16,087 nt of DNA from UHGV virus genome UHGV-0126759; one strand, 5' to 3'. This DNA comes from a virus. Below are positions 1,145-10,800 of the stretch, one piece after another. Numbering within the stretch: position 1 is the first letter of the stretch; every line of letters begins with the position of its first letter. The translations under genes were made by a program, and so were the position numbers. The notes under the pieces are model-generated. The model searched no databases. It was not told where the DNA came from and saw nothing but the letters and a program-made list of their open reading frames with translations.

Positions 1145-1353
1145 TGAACTTACGTTGGCCGATCGCAGCTGCTGTGTTGTTCTGTATTTATATCGCCGTC
1201 AGTACCAGTACCCGCACTGCAGAACGTCGCGAGACCGCAACCAGTACGTTCAGAATGTGTATTGATCGAGTAGACCCGAACAATAGCACTTATCCCGACG
1301 CGGTGAACGCGTGTCGCAAAGCGGTTGCTGAGATATTGAAAGAGGAAAAATAA
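1144..1353 (+). CDS. Small protein (69 aa) with N-terminal hydrophobic segment, probable membrane anchor or signal peptide
   Basis: N-terminal stretch WPIAAAVLFCIYIAVSTS is hydrophobic. GGGGGA Shine-Dalgarno-like sequence upstream; start overlaps the upstream stop and its TAA overlaps the next ATG (TAATG at 1351-1355). Confidence 0.5.
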   Translation: MNLRWPIAAAVLFCIYIAVSTSTRTAERRETATSTFRMCIDRVDPNNSTYPDAVNACRKAVAEILKEEK

Positions 1354-3113
1354 TGGAAAACCTTACGCCGATTGAGATAGTGGCGCTATTCGACCGTTAC
1401 GTATATGGACAAACGCAGGCAAAGAAAATGCTGGCGATTGCGCTACGTAATCGATATCGTGCCAACAAACTCAACGTTGTGGACCGTATGTCGGTCCACA
1501 AACAGAACCTTTTAATAGAAGGTCCAACAGGCACGGGTAAAACGGCGTTGATGCGGGTACTGAAAACTAAATTCGGTTTACCTGTGCTGGAACTCGACAT
1601 GACCGCGTTTACAGAATCGGGCTACGTAGGCCGGGAAGTTACATCAATCGGCAAAGACTTAGCCGACTTAGCGCGTTCTGTCGAATTGCCCGACTGGTAT
1701 ATCGAACTGCGTACCAAACGTCGTGTCGAGACGGAAGTAGACGGTAATCGTCTTACTCGTGAAGAGTGGGAGCGTGAATCCCGTAAGGAAGTTGAACGCG
1801 AACTAGACGAGCGCGCAGCTGAGCGCCAGCTGCGGTATCAAGCTAAACGTGATCACACCGAACTATTACGGCGTCAGGGTATACTCGATCCGAAGGAGTT
1901 GTACGAAGAATACCAAGACATCTATTGTCTTCGCGCGTTTATGGTTGGCTATTGCCGTCAACACAATTTAACCTACGAAGACTTCGATATCTATTCCGTT
2001 ACACTCGGTGGTCGTACTGTGCAAGAATGGATAGATAAGATGTCGGAAATCGCAAGGGGTCTGTTCGGTGTCTCGTCAATTTCTGAACTGTTAAATAGTG
2101 AAGAATTTGAAAGCCAGATTGATAAGCTAATGTGCGGAGAAATACCGGACACGATTGGGTATATGGGTGAGATTATGTCGCTGATGGCTTTAGGCGAACA
2201 GATTGACTTATACGTTGATGCTGGTCAAAAGTTGATGTCGAATAACCTTCCGCTCTCATGTGCCGATGGCTCAGACTTCTACGATTTGTTCGACACGTTT
2301 AACGGCGACGACGAGGACGTCGAGCCGGCGGGCATCAATTGGTTCCCGATCGACGGTGCAGCGTTTACTATTCGCATGTTGTCTCGTTTGGAAGATCCTG
2401 AGAAGTGGTGTCGTTGGTGGGATGACGTGTTCGAAGGTTCTCCAGAATTCACCAAATACGCCGATGAACGGCTCTGGCATTACGAGATACCTGAAACAGT
2501 TGCACCAGAAAAAGAAACAGTCAGTCGCAAAGACCTCAAGAAACTACCCAACTGTAATGGACATGATTTCGTTGAGAACTTTGCGGTAGTGTTCCTGGAT
2601 GAGTTTGACAAACTTATCGAGGTTGATACACAACACTCTGCACGTGTATCCCGTAGTGGTGTGCAGCGCAGCTTGTTGAAAATGGTTGAAGGGGGTATTT
2701 ATCATGGCGTTGACACAACCAATGTGCTTTTTGTCGCTGCTGGGTCGTTTGCTCAAGCGCCTGTTTCTAAACTCATGGCAGAACTCCAGGGACGTTTTCC
2801 GTTAAGAGCGAAAATGTCTTCGCTGGACACCGAGGCACTGATTGCTATCTGTAAGTTGGATAACAGTGAGTTCCACGGCATGATTAAGTTGTTGAAAACC
2901 GAAGGGGTGGAAACGCAGTACGACATGGACACTTACACGTTCATCGCTGAGAAAACAATGGAAGCCAATGCTGTAGAGAACCTTGGTGCTCGTCGATTGG
3001 CGGATATTGTTCATCAGATCTTCTTACCTGCGTCTTACGACTCTTCGAAATATAAGCAATACGACATACGTGGTGAAACACTGCGTGGTCACGCTTGGTC
3101 AGAGAACGCGTAA
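1353..3113 (+). CDS. HslU/ClpX-family AAA+ unfoldase-like ATPase (586 aa) with an expanded insertion (I) domain
   Basis: Seen in sequence: Walker A GPTGTGKT (aa 57-64, nt 1521-1544), pore-loop GYVG (aa 90-93), Walker B VVFLDEFDK (aa 412-420, nt 2586-2612), SRSGVQRSLLKMVEGG box, LQGRFPLRA (Arg-finger region) and sensor-2 ENLGARRL. The N-terminus LTPIEIVALFDRYVYGQTQAKKMLAIALRNRYR is collinear with HslU as I recall it (MTPREIV...[21 protein letters not shown]). AGAGGA Shine-Dalgarno 8 nt upstream. Confidence 0.8.
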   Translation: MENLTPIEIVALFDRYVYGQTQAKKMLAIALRNRYRANKLNVVDRMSVHKQNLLIEGPTGTGKTALMRVLKTKFGLPVLELDMTAFTESGYVGREVTSIGKDLADLARSVELPDWYIELRTKRRVETEVDGNRLTREEWERESRKEVERELDERAAERQLRYQAKRDHTELLRRQGILDPKELYEEYQDIYCLRAFMVGYCRQHNLTYEDFDIYSVTLGGRTVQEWIDKMSEIARGLFGVSSISELLNSEEFESQIDKLMCGEIPDTIGYMGEIMSLMALGEQIDLYVDAGQKLMSNNLPLSCADGSDFYDLFDTFNGDDEDVEPAGINWFPIDGAAFTIRMLSRLEDPEKWCRWWDDVFEGSPEFTKYADERLWHYEIPETVAPEKETVSRKDLKKLPNCNGHDFVENFAVVFLDEFDKLIEVDTQHSARVSRSGVQRSLLKMVEGGIYHGVDTTNVLFVAAGSFAQAPVSKLMAELQGRFPLRAKMSSLDTEALIAICKLDNSEFHGMIKLLKTEGVETQYDMDTYTFIAEKTMEANAVENLGARRLADIVHQIFLPASYDSSKYKQYDIRGETLRGHAWSENA

Positions 3114-4611: not shown

Positions 4612-4929
4612 TTGCCAAAGCTGGATATAACAGTTAAGTCGGGGCTGAAATATTTGGCACCCGACTGGGACTTTCTGATGGACTACAAGAAGTCTGACAA
4701 AGGCCCCGACGCAGAAGCTGCGTATACCAAACGCTACCTGCAGAAACTTAGTCGGTTGTTTGATGAAGACACTGATAAGTTGATAGAGATTCTCCGCCAG
4801 GGCGAGGTCGTACTAATGTGCTATTGCCCACCGGGGAAATTCTGTCATCGCCACTTGCTAGTTTCTTACCTTATTGAAATCGGTGAGTGGTTCGGTTATG
4901 AAGTAATTTACATGGGCGAGTTATCGTAA
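4612..4929 (+). CDS. Small Cys/His-motif protein (105 aa), possibly DUF4326-like
   Basis: C-terminal motif LMCYCPPGKFCHRHLL (C-x-C-x5-C-H-x-H) resembles, from memory, the CWCxPxxCHxDVL signature of DUF4326 proteins. The start is TTG at 4612 with a weak Shine-Dalgarno; an alternative ATG lies at 4678. Confidence 0.45.
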   Translation: MPKLDITVKSGLKYLAPDWDFLMDYKKSDKGPDAEAAYTKRYLQKLSRLFDEDTDKLIEILRQGEVVLMCYCPPGKFCHRHLLVSYLIEIGEWFGYEVIYMGELS

Positions 4930-4940
4930 GGAGAGTCATC

Positions 4941-5336
4941 GTGAAATTGATTATGCCTAAAACCGTTCCCAATCAGGATATGGTTACGACTACACTGTTT
5001 TCTGAATCATTACGTAACTCTGTACGTCAGACCGCTTCACGTCTAGACGTGGCAGTTGAAGAACTCGACCCAGAAGTCTTCATGAAGTATGCGTTTATTG
5101 CAGAAGGTTACGCGATCGCCCTGAGTTATGCGCGGTATGTCGATGACGTGACAGAAGCTAAACGTTATTTAGAAGGCTGTTGTCAAGTTTTCCGTGAAGA
5201 AATCACCGAGATGGAGATGGTTGACCGTGGCTTACCTGAATTTGTAAAGGTGGGTTACGATAAGCTGTTGCAATCCATCGCGGATGAGATCAAACGTCGC
5301 GGGTTAACTGTGGTGCACAGCTCTACACTGCACTAA
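4941..5336 (+). CDS. Hypothetical protein, 131 aa
   Basis: GTG start 7 nt downstream of an AAGGAG Shine-Dalgarno (4928-4933); its TAA stop at 5334-5336 is followed directly by terminator T1. Confidence 0.55.
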   Translation: MKLIMPKTVPNQDMVTTTLFSESLRNSVRQTASRLDVAVEELDPEVFMKYAFIAEGYAIALSYARYVDDVTEAKRYLEGCCQVFREEITEMEMVDRGLPEFVKVGYDKLLQSIADEIKRRGLTVVHSSTLH

Positions 5337-5350
5337 CACCGTACGAGTAG

Positions 5351-5390
5351 GCTACCACACGATCATATGTGTGGTAGCTTATTTTTTTTT
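5351..5390 (+). terminator. Rho-independent terminator T1
   Basis: Perfect 10-bp stem GCTACCACAC (5351-5360) and GTGTGGTAGC (5369-5378) with 8-nt loop, followed by TTATTTTTTTTT (5379-5390). Sits between the stop of the 4941-5336 gene and the start of the next gene. Confidence 0.8.
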
Positions 5391-5406
5391 GTTTCTGGAG
5401 GAAATT

Positions 5407-7356
5407 GTGACGACGAAACCTATAATCCGCAACTTTGCCGAGTTGGTCGAATATACTACAGAGACAATGCTAACCTTGGATCTTCCTGAGGTCTACGACC
5501 CGAGTGTAAGTCTGTCCGTAGATCAGAATGTAGACTACGATTATATCGGGGTCGTGACGGGAAAAAGCAACGTTACCAACCCCACAAACCACAAAGTGGT
5601 AATGTATGCTTACACCACCGGGGAGTATTTGCTAGGTGAAGCCCCTCTTGATGCCTCAGGGGCGTTTTCTTTTAAACGTACGTGGGCCGGTGCTAAACAG
5701 TTTAGACTAATCAATATATCAACTGGAGAGTGGATTACAACCCTGGAATTTCCTCTATGTATACGCAGTTACTTAATGCCCAGCGACGCCGAACCTGATG
5801 TTATCAAGGTAATGAAAGATCGATGTTACACGTACGATCAGGCGGTGGCAGCTTTAGCACTAATGGCTATAGATCACGGAGCCGTTGAGAAATATGTTAA
5901 AGGGCTTTGTGCTTTAGTGGACACAGACGGTGGTATTAAGTTTTATGTAAATCGTTTGTCTGCCAAGTCTCCACGTAACTATTATCGGATGGGCAATGTG
6001 GCATGGGTATTATACGCCCTTGCTTTTTACCTAGAGAAATATCCAAACGGCACCTTAGTTGGTCAAGTTAGGAGTAAGCTCACTCTTTCGCTCAGTTGGG
6101 TTGAAGGATTCCGTGTTAGCGATGTAAACGATAGGAGATACGGCTTATATCTCGGGGGTAAAGGCCGCTTTATTACAAACCCTGATGGTACGCAAACGTT
6201 CGATGAAAATTATGTAGCACCGTTCTCGGCCTTGGAACATTGTGTTGATTTGTGGTTTTTATTCGAGATATTGGGAAGGGTTGGATTTGATAGCTACGCC
6301 GCGAAGGCGATAGAGTTAGGCAATCTAATTTTAGACAAGTTTTGGATAGAAGAAGAGGGTCGATTGCGTCAAGGCGTTAGAGCCGATGTCGATGACGACG
6401 CTGCCGCTTTAGACCAGTCAAGCTGGGGTGGATTGTTTATCGCTAAGTTCAAACCGGAGCTGGCTTCGCAGTGTCACAGCTACATGGAAAAGTTTCGAGC
6501 AGTAACGTCCGAATGCAGCGGTTACACACCTTATAAGGTTGAATTGGGTTATCCGACTGCGGTCGACGGCGTTTGGGTTGAAGGAACTGCCGGTGTTGCC
6601 TTATTTGAAAGACAATTAGGGAACGATACTAGGGCAATTGAACTAATTAATAATATCGATGTTCTCCTGGGTGAACACGGTTATCGCGATTCGTGCGATG
6701 ACCCAACTTACGACACTTTACCTAATTGGCCGTCGACAACAAATACCGCCTGGGTGATTTTGGCCTGCGTACCAAGCGGCTTTTGGTTAGTTGATAAACC
6801 TGCACTGAATGCAAAATACAGCCCCCCTAATCGTTTTACACCTGACCTTAGATTAGACTCCAAGGGCCTCGTTGTGGCGTTAATTAATCACGATAACGGA
6901 TTGTCATTATCGCCTGACGAGATTGTAATAAGCGGAGTGGGGCCTATCGACTTAGGTGTTGAAAGTACCCGTACCGCACAAGCGTACATTGCAAAAGCAC
7001 GTAAACCTAACGGCAAGAAGGTTACCGTCTATTACGACCGTCTAGTTGCTAATAAGATTATCGACCCGCAAGGACCGATACTGGTTACTGTAGCTCCCGG
7101 CGACACCTATGCTGATTTAGCGACAGTTGTAAACCAGTTATGCGGTTTAAACTTGTCACGTGAAGACATCTCGACGGGGGTTATTACACCAACAAACGAG
7201 CCGTTGATTGCACCGATGAGTGACGATTCGCCGGCTTGGACGGCTACCTTTACATTCACGGCGTTTAATGAAAAAGAAGCTGTGGCAAGTCTGGATGAAG
7301 AAACTGTTTTATGCATCGGTGATGATGCAGTGTTAACCTACGGAGACGATGCATAA
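5407..7356 (+). CDS. Large hypothetical protein (about 649 aa from GTG 5407); aromatic-rich, possibly a helical-repeat carbohydrate-active enzyme with a C-terminal beta-rich domain
   Basis: The ORF track starts at 5371, but that would run through the terminator stem and T-tract; GTG at 5407 is in frame and lies 6 nt after a GGAGG Shine-Dalgarno (5396-5400). Helix-pair segments such as YDQAVAALALMAIDHG and NVAWVLYALAFYLEKYPNG resemble (alpha/alpha)-toroid glycosidase or lyase folds, which is an inference. Stop TAA overlaps the next ATG. Confidence 0.65.
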   Translation: MTTKPIIRNFAELVEYTTETMLTLDLPEVYDPSVSLSVDQNVDYDYIGVVTGKSNVTNPTNHKVVMYAYTTGEYLLGEAPLDASGAFSFKRTWAGAKQFRLINISTGEWITTLEFPLCIRSYLMPSDAEPDVIKVMKDRCYTYDQAVAALALMAIDHGAVEKYVKGLCALVDTDGGIKFYVNRLSAKSPRNYYRMGNVAWVLYALAFYLEKYPNGTLVGQVRSKLTLSLSWVEGFRVSDVNDRRYGLYLGGKGRFITNPDGTQTFDENYVAPFSALEHCVDLWFLFEILGRVGFDSYAAKAIELGNLILDKFWIEEEGRLRQGVRADVDDDAAALDQSSWGGLFIAKFKPELASQCHSYMEKFRAVTSECSGYTPYKVELGYPTAVDGVWVEGTAGVALFERQLGNDTRAIELINNIDVLLGEHGYRDSCDDPTYDTLPNWPSTTNTAWVILACVPSGFWLVDKPALNAKYSPPNRFTPDLRLDSKGLVVALINHDNGLSLSPDEIVISGVGPIDLGVESTRTAQAYIAKARKPNGKKVTVYYDRLVANKIIDPQGPILVTVAPGDTYADLATVVNQLCGLNLSREDISTGVITPTNEPLIAPMSDDSPAWTATFTFTAFNEKEAVASLDEETVLCIGDDAVLTYGDDA

Positions 7357-7826
7357 TGGCAACTGTAGTCAAAAAGAAACGTTTGCATGAACTCGATTCT
7401 TACGACGGTGATAAGTCGAGCGCAGTAGCGCTTATTAGCGTTGATGAAAAGGAGTACAAACTTCCTCTCAGTGAAATCGGCGGCGGGGCAGATGCAAACC
7501 CTATCCAAAACTTATCCGGTGCTGACGGTATCGTTGAAATAGATCCCAATATTGCGGACGACTTCATTATCCGTTTAGGTGACCCCACCACTGCGCTTTC
7601 TATCACACCTATTACCGACCCGGTTCCGGGTACGCGATATGAATTATTACTGACGCTACGTCAGGGTACCGGTGCAAACAAAATCACCTGGCCGGCTTCG
7701 GTTAAATGGCCTAACGGTGCAGAACCTCCGTTATCGTACACGCTAGACGCCGAGGATGTGTTGTCTTTGTCATCTACGGATGGCGGTACAACCTGGAAAG
7801 GGGCCATTTGCGGAACAGGATACTAA
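7356..7826 (+). CDS. Hypothetical Gly/Pro/Thr-rich protein, 156 aa
   Basis: ATG overlaps the upstream stop (TAATG at 7354-7358). Motifs such as ITWPASVKWPNGAEPPLSYTL and STDGGTTWKG suggest a beta-rich binding or fibre-like domain; no family assigned. Confidence 0.55.
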   Translation: MATVVKKKRLHELDSYDGDKSSAVALISVDEKEYKLPLSEIGGGADANPIQNLSGADGIVEIDPNIADDFIIRLGDPTTALSITPITDPVPGTRYELLLTLRQGTGANKITWPASVKWPNGAEPPLSYTLDAEDVLSLSSTDGGTTWKGAICGTGY

Positions 7827-7829
7827 GCC

Positions 7830-10800
7830 ATGCGCAAATTTAAAATCTCTGCTAAACGACATGCGTTGAACTATGCGATGTCGCTGGCTTACGGACATCA
7901 GGACTTTGTTCGCCGCAATACCGGTCTCACAAACGACGCCCACAATGACCATTATCTGATTAACCCAGAAGGGGTGCTATCTAATAACCGGCATTTCATT
8001 GCTGACTCCATGGCAGTGTATCAACCTAATGGTGACGCCACCACAGAAGGTCAATCGTTGCTGATTATTGGCTACTGTCACATGTACATTGCTACCAAAA
8101 ACCAGATGTGGTTAGATGCGGCGATTCGTGCATGGGAAGCGTACGCTACCTACTATTACGCAGGTCAGGCCATTCCTGAGTCACCGCAACGTTGGATTTG
8201 TAACTGGCTAGTTAACGGTAAAGAACCGGTGCTGTCAGACTATCCGGTGCATCCGACCGAGCCAACCCACGGTGGTTACAAGTGTGTACCGGTAACGTTT
8301 ACGAACGGGCGTTGTCAGATACCCCAAGGCGCACCGTTCTTTGGTGAATATCTGAACAATTTCTTTTCTGCGCATCGTGGCCATCCTACCTGGGGCGCGG
8401 TTAATGCTGACGTACAGAAAATTAAGGAATCGGAAGACGGGTTAATTGACTGGTCTAAAGTCCCTGATTACTTAATCACCAATCCAGAGAAACCTTACGA
8501 TGTAAAAGCGTGGGTAGACTGGAACAGGATGTTAAACGACCCAACCGGATATACCCCAATATGGGGTGGTTCTACCTCGAAAGGTCCGCGGTACGAACCT
8601 GACTGGTTTGTTGTGTGGACGGGTGAGAAGGTTCAAGACGGCGAAGTCATCGAATCCGGTTTACCTGATGCCCAGAAAGGAACCGTACAATTAAAGGACA
8701 CCAGTATTAACGGTGTATATTTGATTAACTACGCTTCCCAGGTACCTGTAGAGCACGGCGGATATTTGTTTGACCGCAATGAGCCGTGGCACAACCGTCC
8801 GGTTCATACCCCGTTAAAAGGGTCTGTTAACCAGATGGGTAACGCGGCAGATGCGGAAGTGTGGTTTATTGATGCCTGTTATCTCCTCTGGCGTATCACA
8901 GGTGAACCGCGCTATAAAGCCGCACTAGACTCGGTGTTCTATACAGCACACGAATACACGTATATCGATGCGAAGGACAAGTTTTTCCGTCGCTCTAAGT
9001 TAGCCGAAACACCATTTACAGATGGTATCTCGTACGACTATAAATACCCCAGCACCGTTGAGGTCGCTTACAGTCGTGATGAAAATGGTGACATTGTGCT
9101 CCGTTCTGAGGAAGCTGTGCAGAACTTTATGGAACAGCAAGCCGTGCGTTTCAGGATAAACAGTCAATCGAAGTTACGTGTGACGTATGGCGGTGTTTGC
9201 GACAACGGTGATGCGCTTGCGTGTAAAGTGATGGTGGATATCAACCCCGTTAAAGCGGATACTGAAGAAGTAAACTGGTACGGCTGTACGCTTCCAGGAT
9301 CAACATCGATGGAAGTAAAACAGCATGACATCGGTTTAGGGCATCTGGCCAGAATGACTAATCCGGCCAACGGCGAAGATTACATCATTGCCGATGCGCG
9401 AGCATGTTCAGATTACGGTGGGTGTACGTGGCAGGAGAAGTTTGAGAGCAACATCTACGATGGTCGTTCAGGCACAATCGTAGAAGCGTTATTCCCGAAC
9501 GACGATGCGGGCTTCATTATCGGTTTCTGGTTAACTGATGCTGGAGTTGCGCCCCCACAGTCAATTGTCTATCGTGCTGATGCCGATTTCAACTTCCGTT
9601 TCGAAGATACCAAGAAGTGGCGTTGGTGGTGGATGTTGCCCGCGACTAACGGGGAATGGAAACAGGTTATTATTCGCCCTGAAGACGCAACACTCTCGGG
9701 CTATCAACCTGACCACGATACTGATGTCGAAACAAAACCGTCTGCGCCAAACTACACAACTATCGATCAGGTAACCATACTGCCCGATTCGGCTGTGGAG
9801 AATGCGCACTTTAGCTGGTATTGCGTAAACGATGTTCCGCCACTGTTTAATGCAGATGATGGCTGGACATTAACGTTTCGCATCGCAATTCGGGGAGGTT
9901 CTGCATTTACGGGTAAAGTGGGCGATTGTACGATAAAAGATTACCGTCTTGACTCGCTCGCGTATTGTCCAGGAACGATACCGTTCTCGAACATTTATTC
10001 GGAAGGAACGTATCAGCTAGGTGCATGGCACGGGATGCCGTATCCTGGCTATCAGTATCCGTTTATGTACACCATACACACCGATGATCGCTACAAAGTC
10101 TGGCTCTTAAATCAGATTCGGTTTATGCACGATTCACAAACCAACTACCAGGCGCAGCTAGGTGAGTTAGGTCCAGGTTGTGCGGCGTATATTTGGAACC
10201 GTTGGGATAACTACACTTACGGACCGGCAGATACGTGGACAACGTTCCATTGGGGAGATGGACATCCGTGGGCAGGTTATCAGCCGCGCGCGTATAACGC
10301 CGCTGCGCGTTGTTGGTACGAATTAGCTGTGCGTGGTAAAGAGGTTCCACCAGAGCTAGTAGAGTACGTTGAAAATTGGGCTAAGTGGCTCGTAGGGTTC
10401 TTAGACCGCTTTGACAACCACACGCCGAATGAATTCCCTACGGCACCAAATAAACCGGTGTGGGTAGAGAATGATTTCACAGCACATATGTGTGCGCTCT
10501 GGATAGCAGGCAGCGCTTATGCGGCAATGGCTGGCTGTAAAGTGGAAGGGCTGAACCGGATTATGGATATGGGGATGAAAGAGATGGGTGACAACTTCAC
10601 CGTCACAGACATTCCAGGAAAAGCCATTAACGGTGCCTGGTCTCCGTGGGCAAACCCTACCACGGATAACGGTCAGGCTTTTGGGTTTTATACTGGAGAA
10701 GCGATGCGTGCAATCGGGTTGTATCTCCTCTATAAAGAACACGGCCCAGGACATGATATTTATCGTGACTTGGCAATACCCGACCACACAACAGCTTCAC

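Follow-up and report, generated by a model that had tools for sequence, protein, structure and literature searches.

A probable allelic replacement in an SPN3US-like jumbo phage places an enzyme-like module ahead of a DUF7941 fibre domain

Introduction

DUF7941 proteins are specific to chimalliviruses and, as found for phage Goslar, are among the most abundant virion components; purified Goslar gp22 forms filaments, and a head-to-tail polymerisation was predicted for the family, in which the linker of one protomer docks on the N-terminal domain of the next (10.64898/2026.04.21.720040). Some Goslar members carry glycoside hydrolase (GH), carbohydrate-binding or leucine-rich repeat domains after the N-terminal DUF7941 (10.64898/2026.04.21.720040), the GH-like domains being thought to mediate host recognition. 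The fibre proteins used for comparison were Goslar gp22/gp23, the domain-bearing Goslar gp86, gp92 and gp161, and PhiKZ gp126/gp127. The gene described here is located at 5407–7356 (+ strand) of a 16,087-nt stretch of the virus genome UHGV-0126759 (this whole stretch is termed the window) and encodes a protein of 649 amino acids (aa), in which a module with an enzyme-like predicted fold precedes DUF7941.

Mosaic exchange of distal tail-fibre and tailspike modules between phages is well known, usually with a conserved N-terminal anchor and a variable C-terminal module. In Goslar, in the PHROG families matched here and in the paralogs of the Salmonella giant phage SPN3US, DUF7941 comes first, whereas in the window protein and in its relatives on two further contigs, the only DUF7941 proteins with reverse order seen in this work, the module comes first. 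The gene is most probably a chimera that arose by allelic replacement, in which the usual short DUF7941 gene of a Seoulvirus recombined with a diverged gene that already carried the module fused to DUF7941. In a first-pass annotation, the gene had been read as acquired by mosaicism from a lower-GC donor, as modules for host range or depolymerases often are; the core of this proposal was supported by comparative genomics, not by composition.

Results

Positions 5000–8000 of the window were compared with 50,697 phage records using megablast. Matches of 95–99% identity were obtained with 37 jumbo phages of the SPN3US group (Seoulvirus, approximately 240 kb), in each of which the alignment was limited to roughly half of the query and split into two pieces, nearly adjoining in the subject record. 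Judged by this similarity, the window is assigned to the structural region of an SPN3US-like jumbo phage; its backbone was approximately 98% identical to SPN3US. At the same locus, SPN3US and Proteus phage 7 contain a 534-bp gene for a 177-aa protein (YP_009153416 in SPN3US), annotated as 'virion structural protein', as are the SPN3US orthologs in general, followed by genes for a 156-aa 'tail fiber protein' and a 1005-aa 'tail protein'. The gene order in the window is that of SPN3US, with the difference that the first of these genes measures 1950 bp. The short SPN3US-type ortholog, with a globular domain and a tail, resembles the Goslar gp23 type; gp122–124 are not mentioned in the SPN3US proteomics paper.

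The borders of the difference were determined by blastn of the window against five relatives (SPN3US, Proteus phage 7, Lh1B, JN03 and MET_P1_082_240). To the left, identity of 95–99% ended at position 5401 in all five. In three of them (SPN3US, Proteus phage 7 and MET_P1_082_240) the match restarted at 6868, and in the other two, Lh1B and JN03, it did so at 7869. Between flanks of approximately 98% identity, the window thus has 1466 bp (5402–6867, + strand) in place of 50 bp in SPN3US. This segment contains a new GTG start, the module, a linker and, at its 3′ end, the 10 codons with which a diverged DUF7941 begins. The acquired part is hence neither the whole gene nor its central domain, as had been suggested, but the 5′ 1466 bp, corresponding to the N-terminal 487 codons. 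Searched as DNA by megablast and blastn against the 50,697 phage records, the segment gave only partial matches of 67–70% identity to two E. coli phages.

At the left border, the intrinsic terminator of the upstream gene (5345–5394, + strand; stem of 16–17 bp plus T-run) forms a conserved left homology arm. Its hairpin at 5345–5384 with the T-run was predicted to fold at −26.1 kcal/mol (z = −4.64), and SPN3US and Proteus phage 7 share its sequence almost unchanged. The terminator that the first-pass annotation placed directly upstream of the gene is therefore real, and it belongs to the conserved backbone. The Shine–Dalgarno sequence GGAGG follows at 5398–5402 (+ strand), and base-level comparison located the left breakpoint directly 3′ of it, with identity to SPN3US stopping at 5401/5402. 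The GTG start codon at 5407 lies 5 nt past the Shine–Dalgarno sequence; an alternative GTG at 5371 sits within the terminator hairpin, and an independent gene call in the NCBI assembly GCA_051416475.1 uses the same start codon as 5407.

The right crossover zone (6868–6875, + strand) lies in the conserved stretch coding for LVVALINHDN. Directly upstream of it, the window encodes NRFTPDLRLDSKG and SPN3US encodes DRYQPDLTLSSKA, of which 7/13 aa and 20/39 nt (51%) are identical, against 474/489 nt (97%) for the last 163 codons of the gene (6868–7356; Fisher p = 2 × 10−15). It follows from this pattern that a diverged, already-fused allele replaced the original one, since a deletion in the SPN3US lineage cannot produce it. 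The short form (177–180 aa in one tally and 177–193 aa in another) was present in 39 of 39 records with the SPN3US locus, including more divergent Seoulvirus species and other genera (the outgroup genera with a short ortholog include SPAsTU, pEa_SNUABM_29 and Asesino). On the protein level, all orthologs were short as well, ranging from 116 to 193 aa if partial and frameshifted entries are counted.

The identical left junction was found in a second assembly, on the 539-bp contig JBPRHW010000144.1 of GCA_051416475.1, so that the allele is neither an assembly artefact nor private to the genome. The backbone adjoining the junction differs by 3% from the window in that contig (9/299 mismatches), compared to 2/239 mismatches in the module, a difference which was not significant (p = 0.12). 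This comparison of two sequences hints at a long allele that is spreading among Seoulvirus backgrounds, or at a module younger than its surroundings. Exact junction patterns were sought in viral, metagenome and genome collections with 0 matches. The description of the gene as recently acquired accordingly holds in a relative sense only: the event falls within the diversity of Seoulvirus, given flanks of approximately 98% identity to SPN3US, and is shared with another genome.

The acquired module was modelled with AlphaFold2 at a predicted local distance difference test score (pLDDT) of 95.2 and a predicted template modelling score of 0.94. The model consists of an N-terminal helix (aa 10–25), a beta-sandwich domain (aa 36–114; 5512–5748, + strand) and an (alpha/alpha)6 barrel (aa 130–454; 5794–6768, + strand), the latter having the fold of six-hairpin GHs of the GH15-like and MmpH-like type. 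Within the barrel, E277, D336, E392 and G196 are invariant, and Y143, D144, H278, D281, D330 and W340 are nearly so; the conserved acidic residues among these (E277, D336 and E392, together with D144, D281 and D330) are candidates for a catalytic acid/base pair in the central cleft. The (alpha/alpha)6 GHs used for structural comparison, the GH15-like dextran dextrinase 9ju0, the endo-alpha-1,4-mannosidase MmpH 7qsj (PMC9883506) and the GH15-related 5z3a, share just 7–13% sequence identity with the module. No match was obtained for the module in Pfam (E ≤ 10) or NCBIfam, and it is not placed in a curated GH family; sequence and profile searches against the PDB yielded nothing significant (MmpH, E = 0.38). 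From the modelled fold, the module would most likely bind a host surface polysaccharide and would probably cleave it.

Relatives of the module are widespread in fibre proteins. It matched three PHROG 'tail fiber' families (13714, 7032 and 4128) at their C-termini and, at 40–61% identity, about 110 clusters of prophage fibre proteins from Escherichia, Salmonella, Citrobacter and Yersinia, in which it is preceded by one of at least four N-terminal anchors unrelated to one another (PF08400, PF12571, PF18668 and PF03406). An exhaustive HMMER search yielded 448 representatives at 50% clustering, the longest of the proteins having 5243 aa. The C-terminal domain of enterobacterial prophage side tail fibres (e.g. 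WCJ00198 of phiSTEC1575-Stx2k) is 47–60% identical on the protein level over aa 7–470 and comprises the same unit of helix, beta-sandwich and barrel. In the Stx2k phage, the module is the tip of a protein at the side-tail-fibre position, after J and Lom; in siphophage and myophage fibres it forms the C-terminal tip, whereas in the window it is N-terminal. The module furthermore occurs as a standalone 494-aa protein in Asteriusvirus ph0011 and, at approximately 30% identity, in minor tail proteins of Microbacterium phages. A functional study of the enterobacterial side-tail-fibre domain was not found in the literature. Gifsy-1 Stf, also considered for comparison, is a different, Ur-lambda-type fibre and was set aside as not relevant.

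The module ends with ...AKY, which is its natural C-terminal end, as standalone and C-terminal versions stop there. A linker of six residues, SPPNRF (6820–6837, + strand), delimited by alignment with the Stx2k-phage, ph0011 and L005 proteins (the last being introduced below), connects it to the start of DUF7941 (TPDL).

The retained DUF7941 part (aa 478–649; 6838–7353, + strand; PF25613, phrog_2935 'virion structural protein') consists of a globular domain of the N-terminal type and a predicted disordered tail. The PF25613 match reached 56.4 bits at a cut-off of 27 (E = 4 × 10−15), with aa 481–629 aligned to profile positions 4–161 of 276, and a DUF7941 profile of the window matched residues 16–155 of PhiKZ gp127 (PDB 9xqd, chain 0) at E = 0.0027, which is modest and specific. 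Family membership is established by the Pfam score, the homology to PhiKZ gp127 and a chimallivirus backbone with multiple paralogs: a local hmmsearch detected 11 further DUF7941 open reading frames (ORFs) in 150 kb of SPN3US, located at 115–133 kb (L012, 15351–33151) and approximately 83 kb (L011, 32894–33442). These encode proteins of 183–506 aa, mostly annotated as 'virion structural protein', all with N-terminal DUF7941. The position of DUF7941 at aa 478–649 behind the module thus departs from the typical order of N-terminal DUF7941 and C-terminal accessory domains. When a profile was used to look for more distant DUF7941 architectures, nothing was gained beyond the reach of the first search.

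Near the C-terminal end, the motif TVLCIGDDAVLTYG (aa 633–646; 7303–7344, + strand) was recognised in alignments; it is predicted to be disordered (pLDDT approximately 30 in the monomer model) and is kept in orthologs down to 30% identity, with D639, V642, L643 and T644 invariant. By analogy to the Goslar gp22/gp23 model, TVLCIGDDAVLTYG is a candidate for the inter-protomer head-to-tail docking peptide.

The sole other two-part architecture found was a 644-aa protein, with the module followed by DUF7941, on a 59.8-kb Logan contig (L005) and on a 225-kb IMG/VR jumbo-phage contig (L009), which are 92–98% identical to each other and have 43% GC. Compared to the window protein, its module is approximately 66% and its DUF7941 part approximately 30% identical, and the linkers are alike (KYSPPNRF in the window, RYNPQNKF in the long form of L005 and L009). 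A search of IMG/VR for the donor gave one relative at 68%. From these pre-fused forms and the junction pattern, the donor is concluded to be an unsampled phage with a pre-fused long allele. The locus of the 644-aa gene is expanded in L005 (4046–11935), where this gene comes last, after a gene for a short DUF7941 protein of 186 aa, one for a T4-like long tail fibre of 1532 aa with Gp34_trimer and Peptidase_S74 domains, and one for a gp38-like adhesin; L009 (148–8151) begins inside the same locus and shows the fibre, a 167-aa ORF and the 644-aa ORF.

Composition was analysed for the whole gene and in sliding windows. The GC values counted by hand over 60-nt stretches in the first-pass annotation were roughly right at their spots (43.3, 28.3 and 46.7% in the gene; 58.3 and 55.0% in the neighbouring 1005-aa gene), but unrepresentative. 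GC is 46.1% over the whole gene, 49.0% over the 1005-aa gene and 47.2% over the window, i.e. a difference of approximately 2–3 points where 10–25 points had been quoted. The standard deviation of GC over 60-nt stretches (0.057–0.062) did not exceed the binomial expectation of 0.064, and the stretches in the gene did not differ from those in the remaining window (Mann–Whitney p = 0.20) and differed mildly from those in the 1005-aa gene (p = 0.012). Elsewhere in the window, GC is lower than in the gene at several places. The quoted magnitude was rejected because neither whole-gene nor sliding GC gave a convincing break.

Codon usage did deviate. GC at third codon positions (GC3) is 44.1% in the gene and 49.3% in the window backbone (Fisher p = 0.01–0.05). 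As a null, 149 ORFs from 150 kb of SPN3US were used, with a long set of 52 genes of ≥300 aa, in which GC3 was 53.5 ± 4.3% and a single gene fell below 44.1%. Set against these long genes, the gene belongs to the lowest 4% by GC and the lowest 2% by GC3, and rare codons (7.7% vs. 2.9%) put it in the top 2%; its share of AGA/AGG among arginine codons (AGR) exceeds that of all 52. The AGG AGA pair at 6133–6138 and the AGA/AGG codons at 6379, 6610 and 6631, which had been pointed out earlier, are present, and all nine AGA/AGG codons of the gene fall within the insert. There they account for 9/23 arginine codons; the backbone of the window has 27/236 (p = 0.0014), and the 150 kb of SPN3US have 189/2451 (pooled Fisher p = 3 × 10−5). 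The codon claim of the first-pass annotation was thus upheld for the AGA/AGG excess, the lower GC3 and a roughly doubled frequency of rare codons, while neither TTA/CTA nor ATA usage was individually significant. In a sliding 150-codon profile, a kind of analysis that the annotation had named as a check, GC3 reaches its lowest value in the window (0.387) inside the gene, and the rare-codon share its highest (0.113); the lack of deviation that would have refuted the annotation was thus not observed. The signal is real but modest, far weaker than first thought and not unique in the genome; the gene lies in the tail, not outside the range, of the genome. That the codon signature is intrinsic to the module was considered and rejected, the AGR positions not being common to module homologs; copies of the module follow the GC of the resident genome (33, 43 and 48%). 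The slightly low GC3 and the excess of AGA/AGG are most probably what remains of a donor with somewhat lower GC.

The downstream gene for the 156-aa 'tail fiber protein' (7356–7826, + strand; phrog_9017) has a GC3 of 0.43–0.46 and is diverged in Lh1B and JN03, which have another short DUF7941 allele and another downstream gene (161 aa). From these alignments, 5402–7868 appears to behave as an exchangeable host-recognition cassette that is variable at genus level, and it covers the same span as the trough in GC3 (approximately 5530–7780). The trough does not delimit the acquired DNA.

About a dozen SPFM phage records (LR5359xx) matched the locus only as 15–22 short pieces, with fragmented orthologs of 116–193 aa, which looks like indel-rich sequencing or assembly error rather than biology. 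A DUF488-N3a family protein of 105 aa is encoded at 4612–4929 (+ strand) amid structural genes and is kept in SPN3US and the L005 phage. A second indel hot spot is the gene for a 586-aa HslU/ClpX-like AAA+ ATPase (1353–3113, + strand), which is missing from Proteus phage 7, has 95% identity to a gene annotated hslU in MET_P1_082_240, and is replaced in SPN3US by approximately 460 bp with a 161-aa ORF annotated as 'head maturation protease'. An HslV-family peptidase is encoded separately in SPN3US, and some strains may carry a phage HslUV pair.

Discussion

The locus is an ordinary tail-fibre mosaic with an unusual domain order, and it most probably originated as follows. The resident Seoulvirus allele would have been the usual short DUF7941 gene of 177 aa, and the partner a gene of a diverged phage, in which a module of approximately 470 aa was already fused ahead of DUF7941. 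Recombination would have used the terminator and Shine–Dalgarno region as the left crossover and the LVVALINHDN-coding stretch, approximately 10 codons into DUF7941, as the right one, so that the product would retain the resident DUF7941 body and C-terminal tail. By analogy to Goslar and PhiKZ, these DUF7941 parts may plug the chimera into the head-to-tail filaments of the peripheral baseplate, with the gained N-terminal helix, beta-sandwich and (alpha/alpha)6 barrel presented outward. The enzyme-like head would then alter the surface glycan that is first engaged, and adsorption or host range may be changed.

Several observations weigh against parts of this account. A close donor was not found, the best module relatives being 66–68% identical on the protein and approximately 62% on the DNA level. 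The nearest folds include non-hydrolytic sugar isomerases and epimerases, with the AGE family scoring nearly as well as the (alpha/alpha)6 GHs. Wherever else extra domains were seen on a DUF7941 protein, in this work or in Goslar, they are C-terminal, and the C-terminal part of the protein was modelled poorly as a monomer (pLDDT 53.5). Composition on its own would be an unconvincing argument, as the overall synonymous chi-square is merely in the top 7% of length-matched blocks and the GC3 trough also spans the conserved C-terminal part and the next gene. These last two points are equally what could be expected if no horizontal event lay behind the composition, which would instead stem from the amino acids encoded, from weak expression or from a mutational bias local to the fibre locus, and a few native SPN3US genes are indeed similar (e.g. 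a 480-aa gene with a GC3 of 0.446 and an AGR share of 0.32). Such effects may account for part of the trough, but not for 1466 bp without counterpart in 39 relatives between 98%-identical flanks, and they leave the confinement of all AGR codons to the insert unaccounted for; as a complete explanation, this improbable alternative is refuted by the comparative data. Even less credit can be given to an assembly artefact, in which reads of a Seoulvirus were joined to those of an unrelated phage or prophage. Relatives of the module are abundant in prophages of Enterobacteriaceae, a possible contaminant of lysates, but these copies are no closer than approximately 60% protein identity, the reading frame runs through without interruption, the codons at the junction belong to the long-form type of DUF7941, and the independent NCBI contig spans the left junction with single-nucleotide differences of its own, which makes the artefact extremely improbable.

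Deletion of dispensable fibre domains is common, and the long form might accordingly be ancestral, with the module lost from SPN3US and the other relatives and nothing acquired. The long forms in another jumbo-phage lineage would agree with this, as they make the fusion older than the window genome. Codons retained after a loss would, however, have stayed at backbone identity, whereas the 39 nt before the break are 51% and the sequence after it 97% identical, a contrast by which the loss explanation appears largely refuted; moreover, the short form is without exception among the 39 relatives, outgroup genera and Seoulvirus species that diverge more from SPN3US than the window does included, and the AGR and GC3 signature points to a foreign origin. 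Loss is consequently considered very unlikely. A question of another kind is whether the module, acquired by the same replacement, is a non-catalytic, lectin-like receptor-binding domain that only binds a glycan or another receptor. Distal fibre domains often do no more than bind, the place of the module at the outermost end of side tail fibres in prophages suits such a function, and no Pfam, NCBIfam or CAZy-type family claims the module; against this stand the six-hairpin GH-like fold and the conserved acidic residues of the barrel, and we regard a pure binder as possible, though less likely than an enzyme. Still more tentatively, the glycosidase-like head may cap or decorate the distal end of micron-long DUF7941 filaments, the fibre cloud serving as a plug-in scaffold for unrelated temperate-phage modules, so that a single swap would retarget a jumbo phage; this is rather unlikely at present.

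Compared to usual tail-fibre mosaicism, the case is alike in that a self-contained distal module was swapped at a domain boundary while the virion-attachment part was kept, and in that the module is common to unrelated phage types (lambdoid siphophages, Asteriusvirus and Microbacterium phages). It is unlike it in that the variable module is N-terminal and the anchor C-terminal, and in that the partner was a diverged, already-fused homolog. Tail-fibre mosaicism and DUF7941 proteins with hydrolase domains were already known; what is new is that the domain order is reversed, that the module has a cross-family source and that long and short alleles exist as near-isogenic versions. Hand-sampled GC proved a poor guide here, and the first-pass annotation was right mostly for the wrong reason.

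Conclusions

A widespread, uncurated enzyme-like tail-fibre domain was identified, for which no Pfam or NCBIfam model exists. Its family comprises approximately 450 representatives at 50% clustering, and lambdoid prophages, Asteriusvirus, actinophages and chimalliviruses are the groups between which it moves. The event itself is unsurprising, fibre-module swapping being routine, and its value is practical, in that it offers a way to approach the hypothesis of DUF7941 filaments. Phages that carry the module and phages that lack it, on a near-identical SPN3US backbone, form a natural pair, by which the role of DUF7941 filaments in host recognition could be tested. If the head does cap the filaments, the phage of the window and its 98%-identical short-allele relatives would be a natural isogenic pair showing retargeting of the fibre cloud by a single swap. 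The same pair could explain differences in host range among therapeutic Salmonella jumbo phages.

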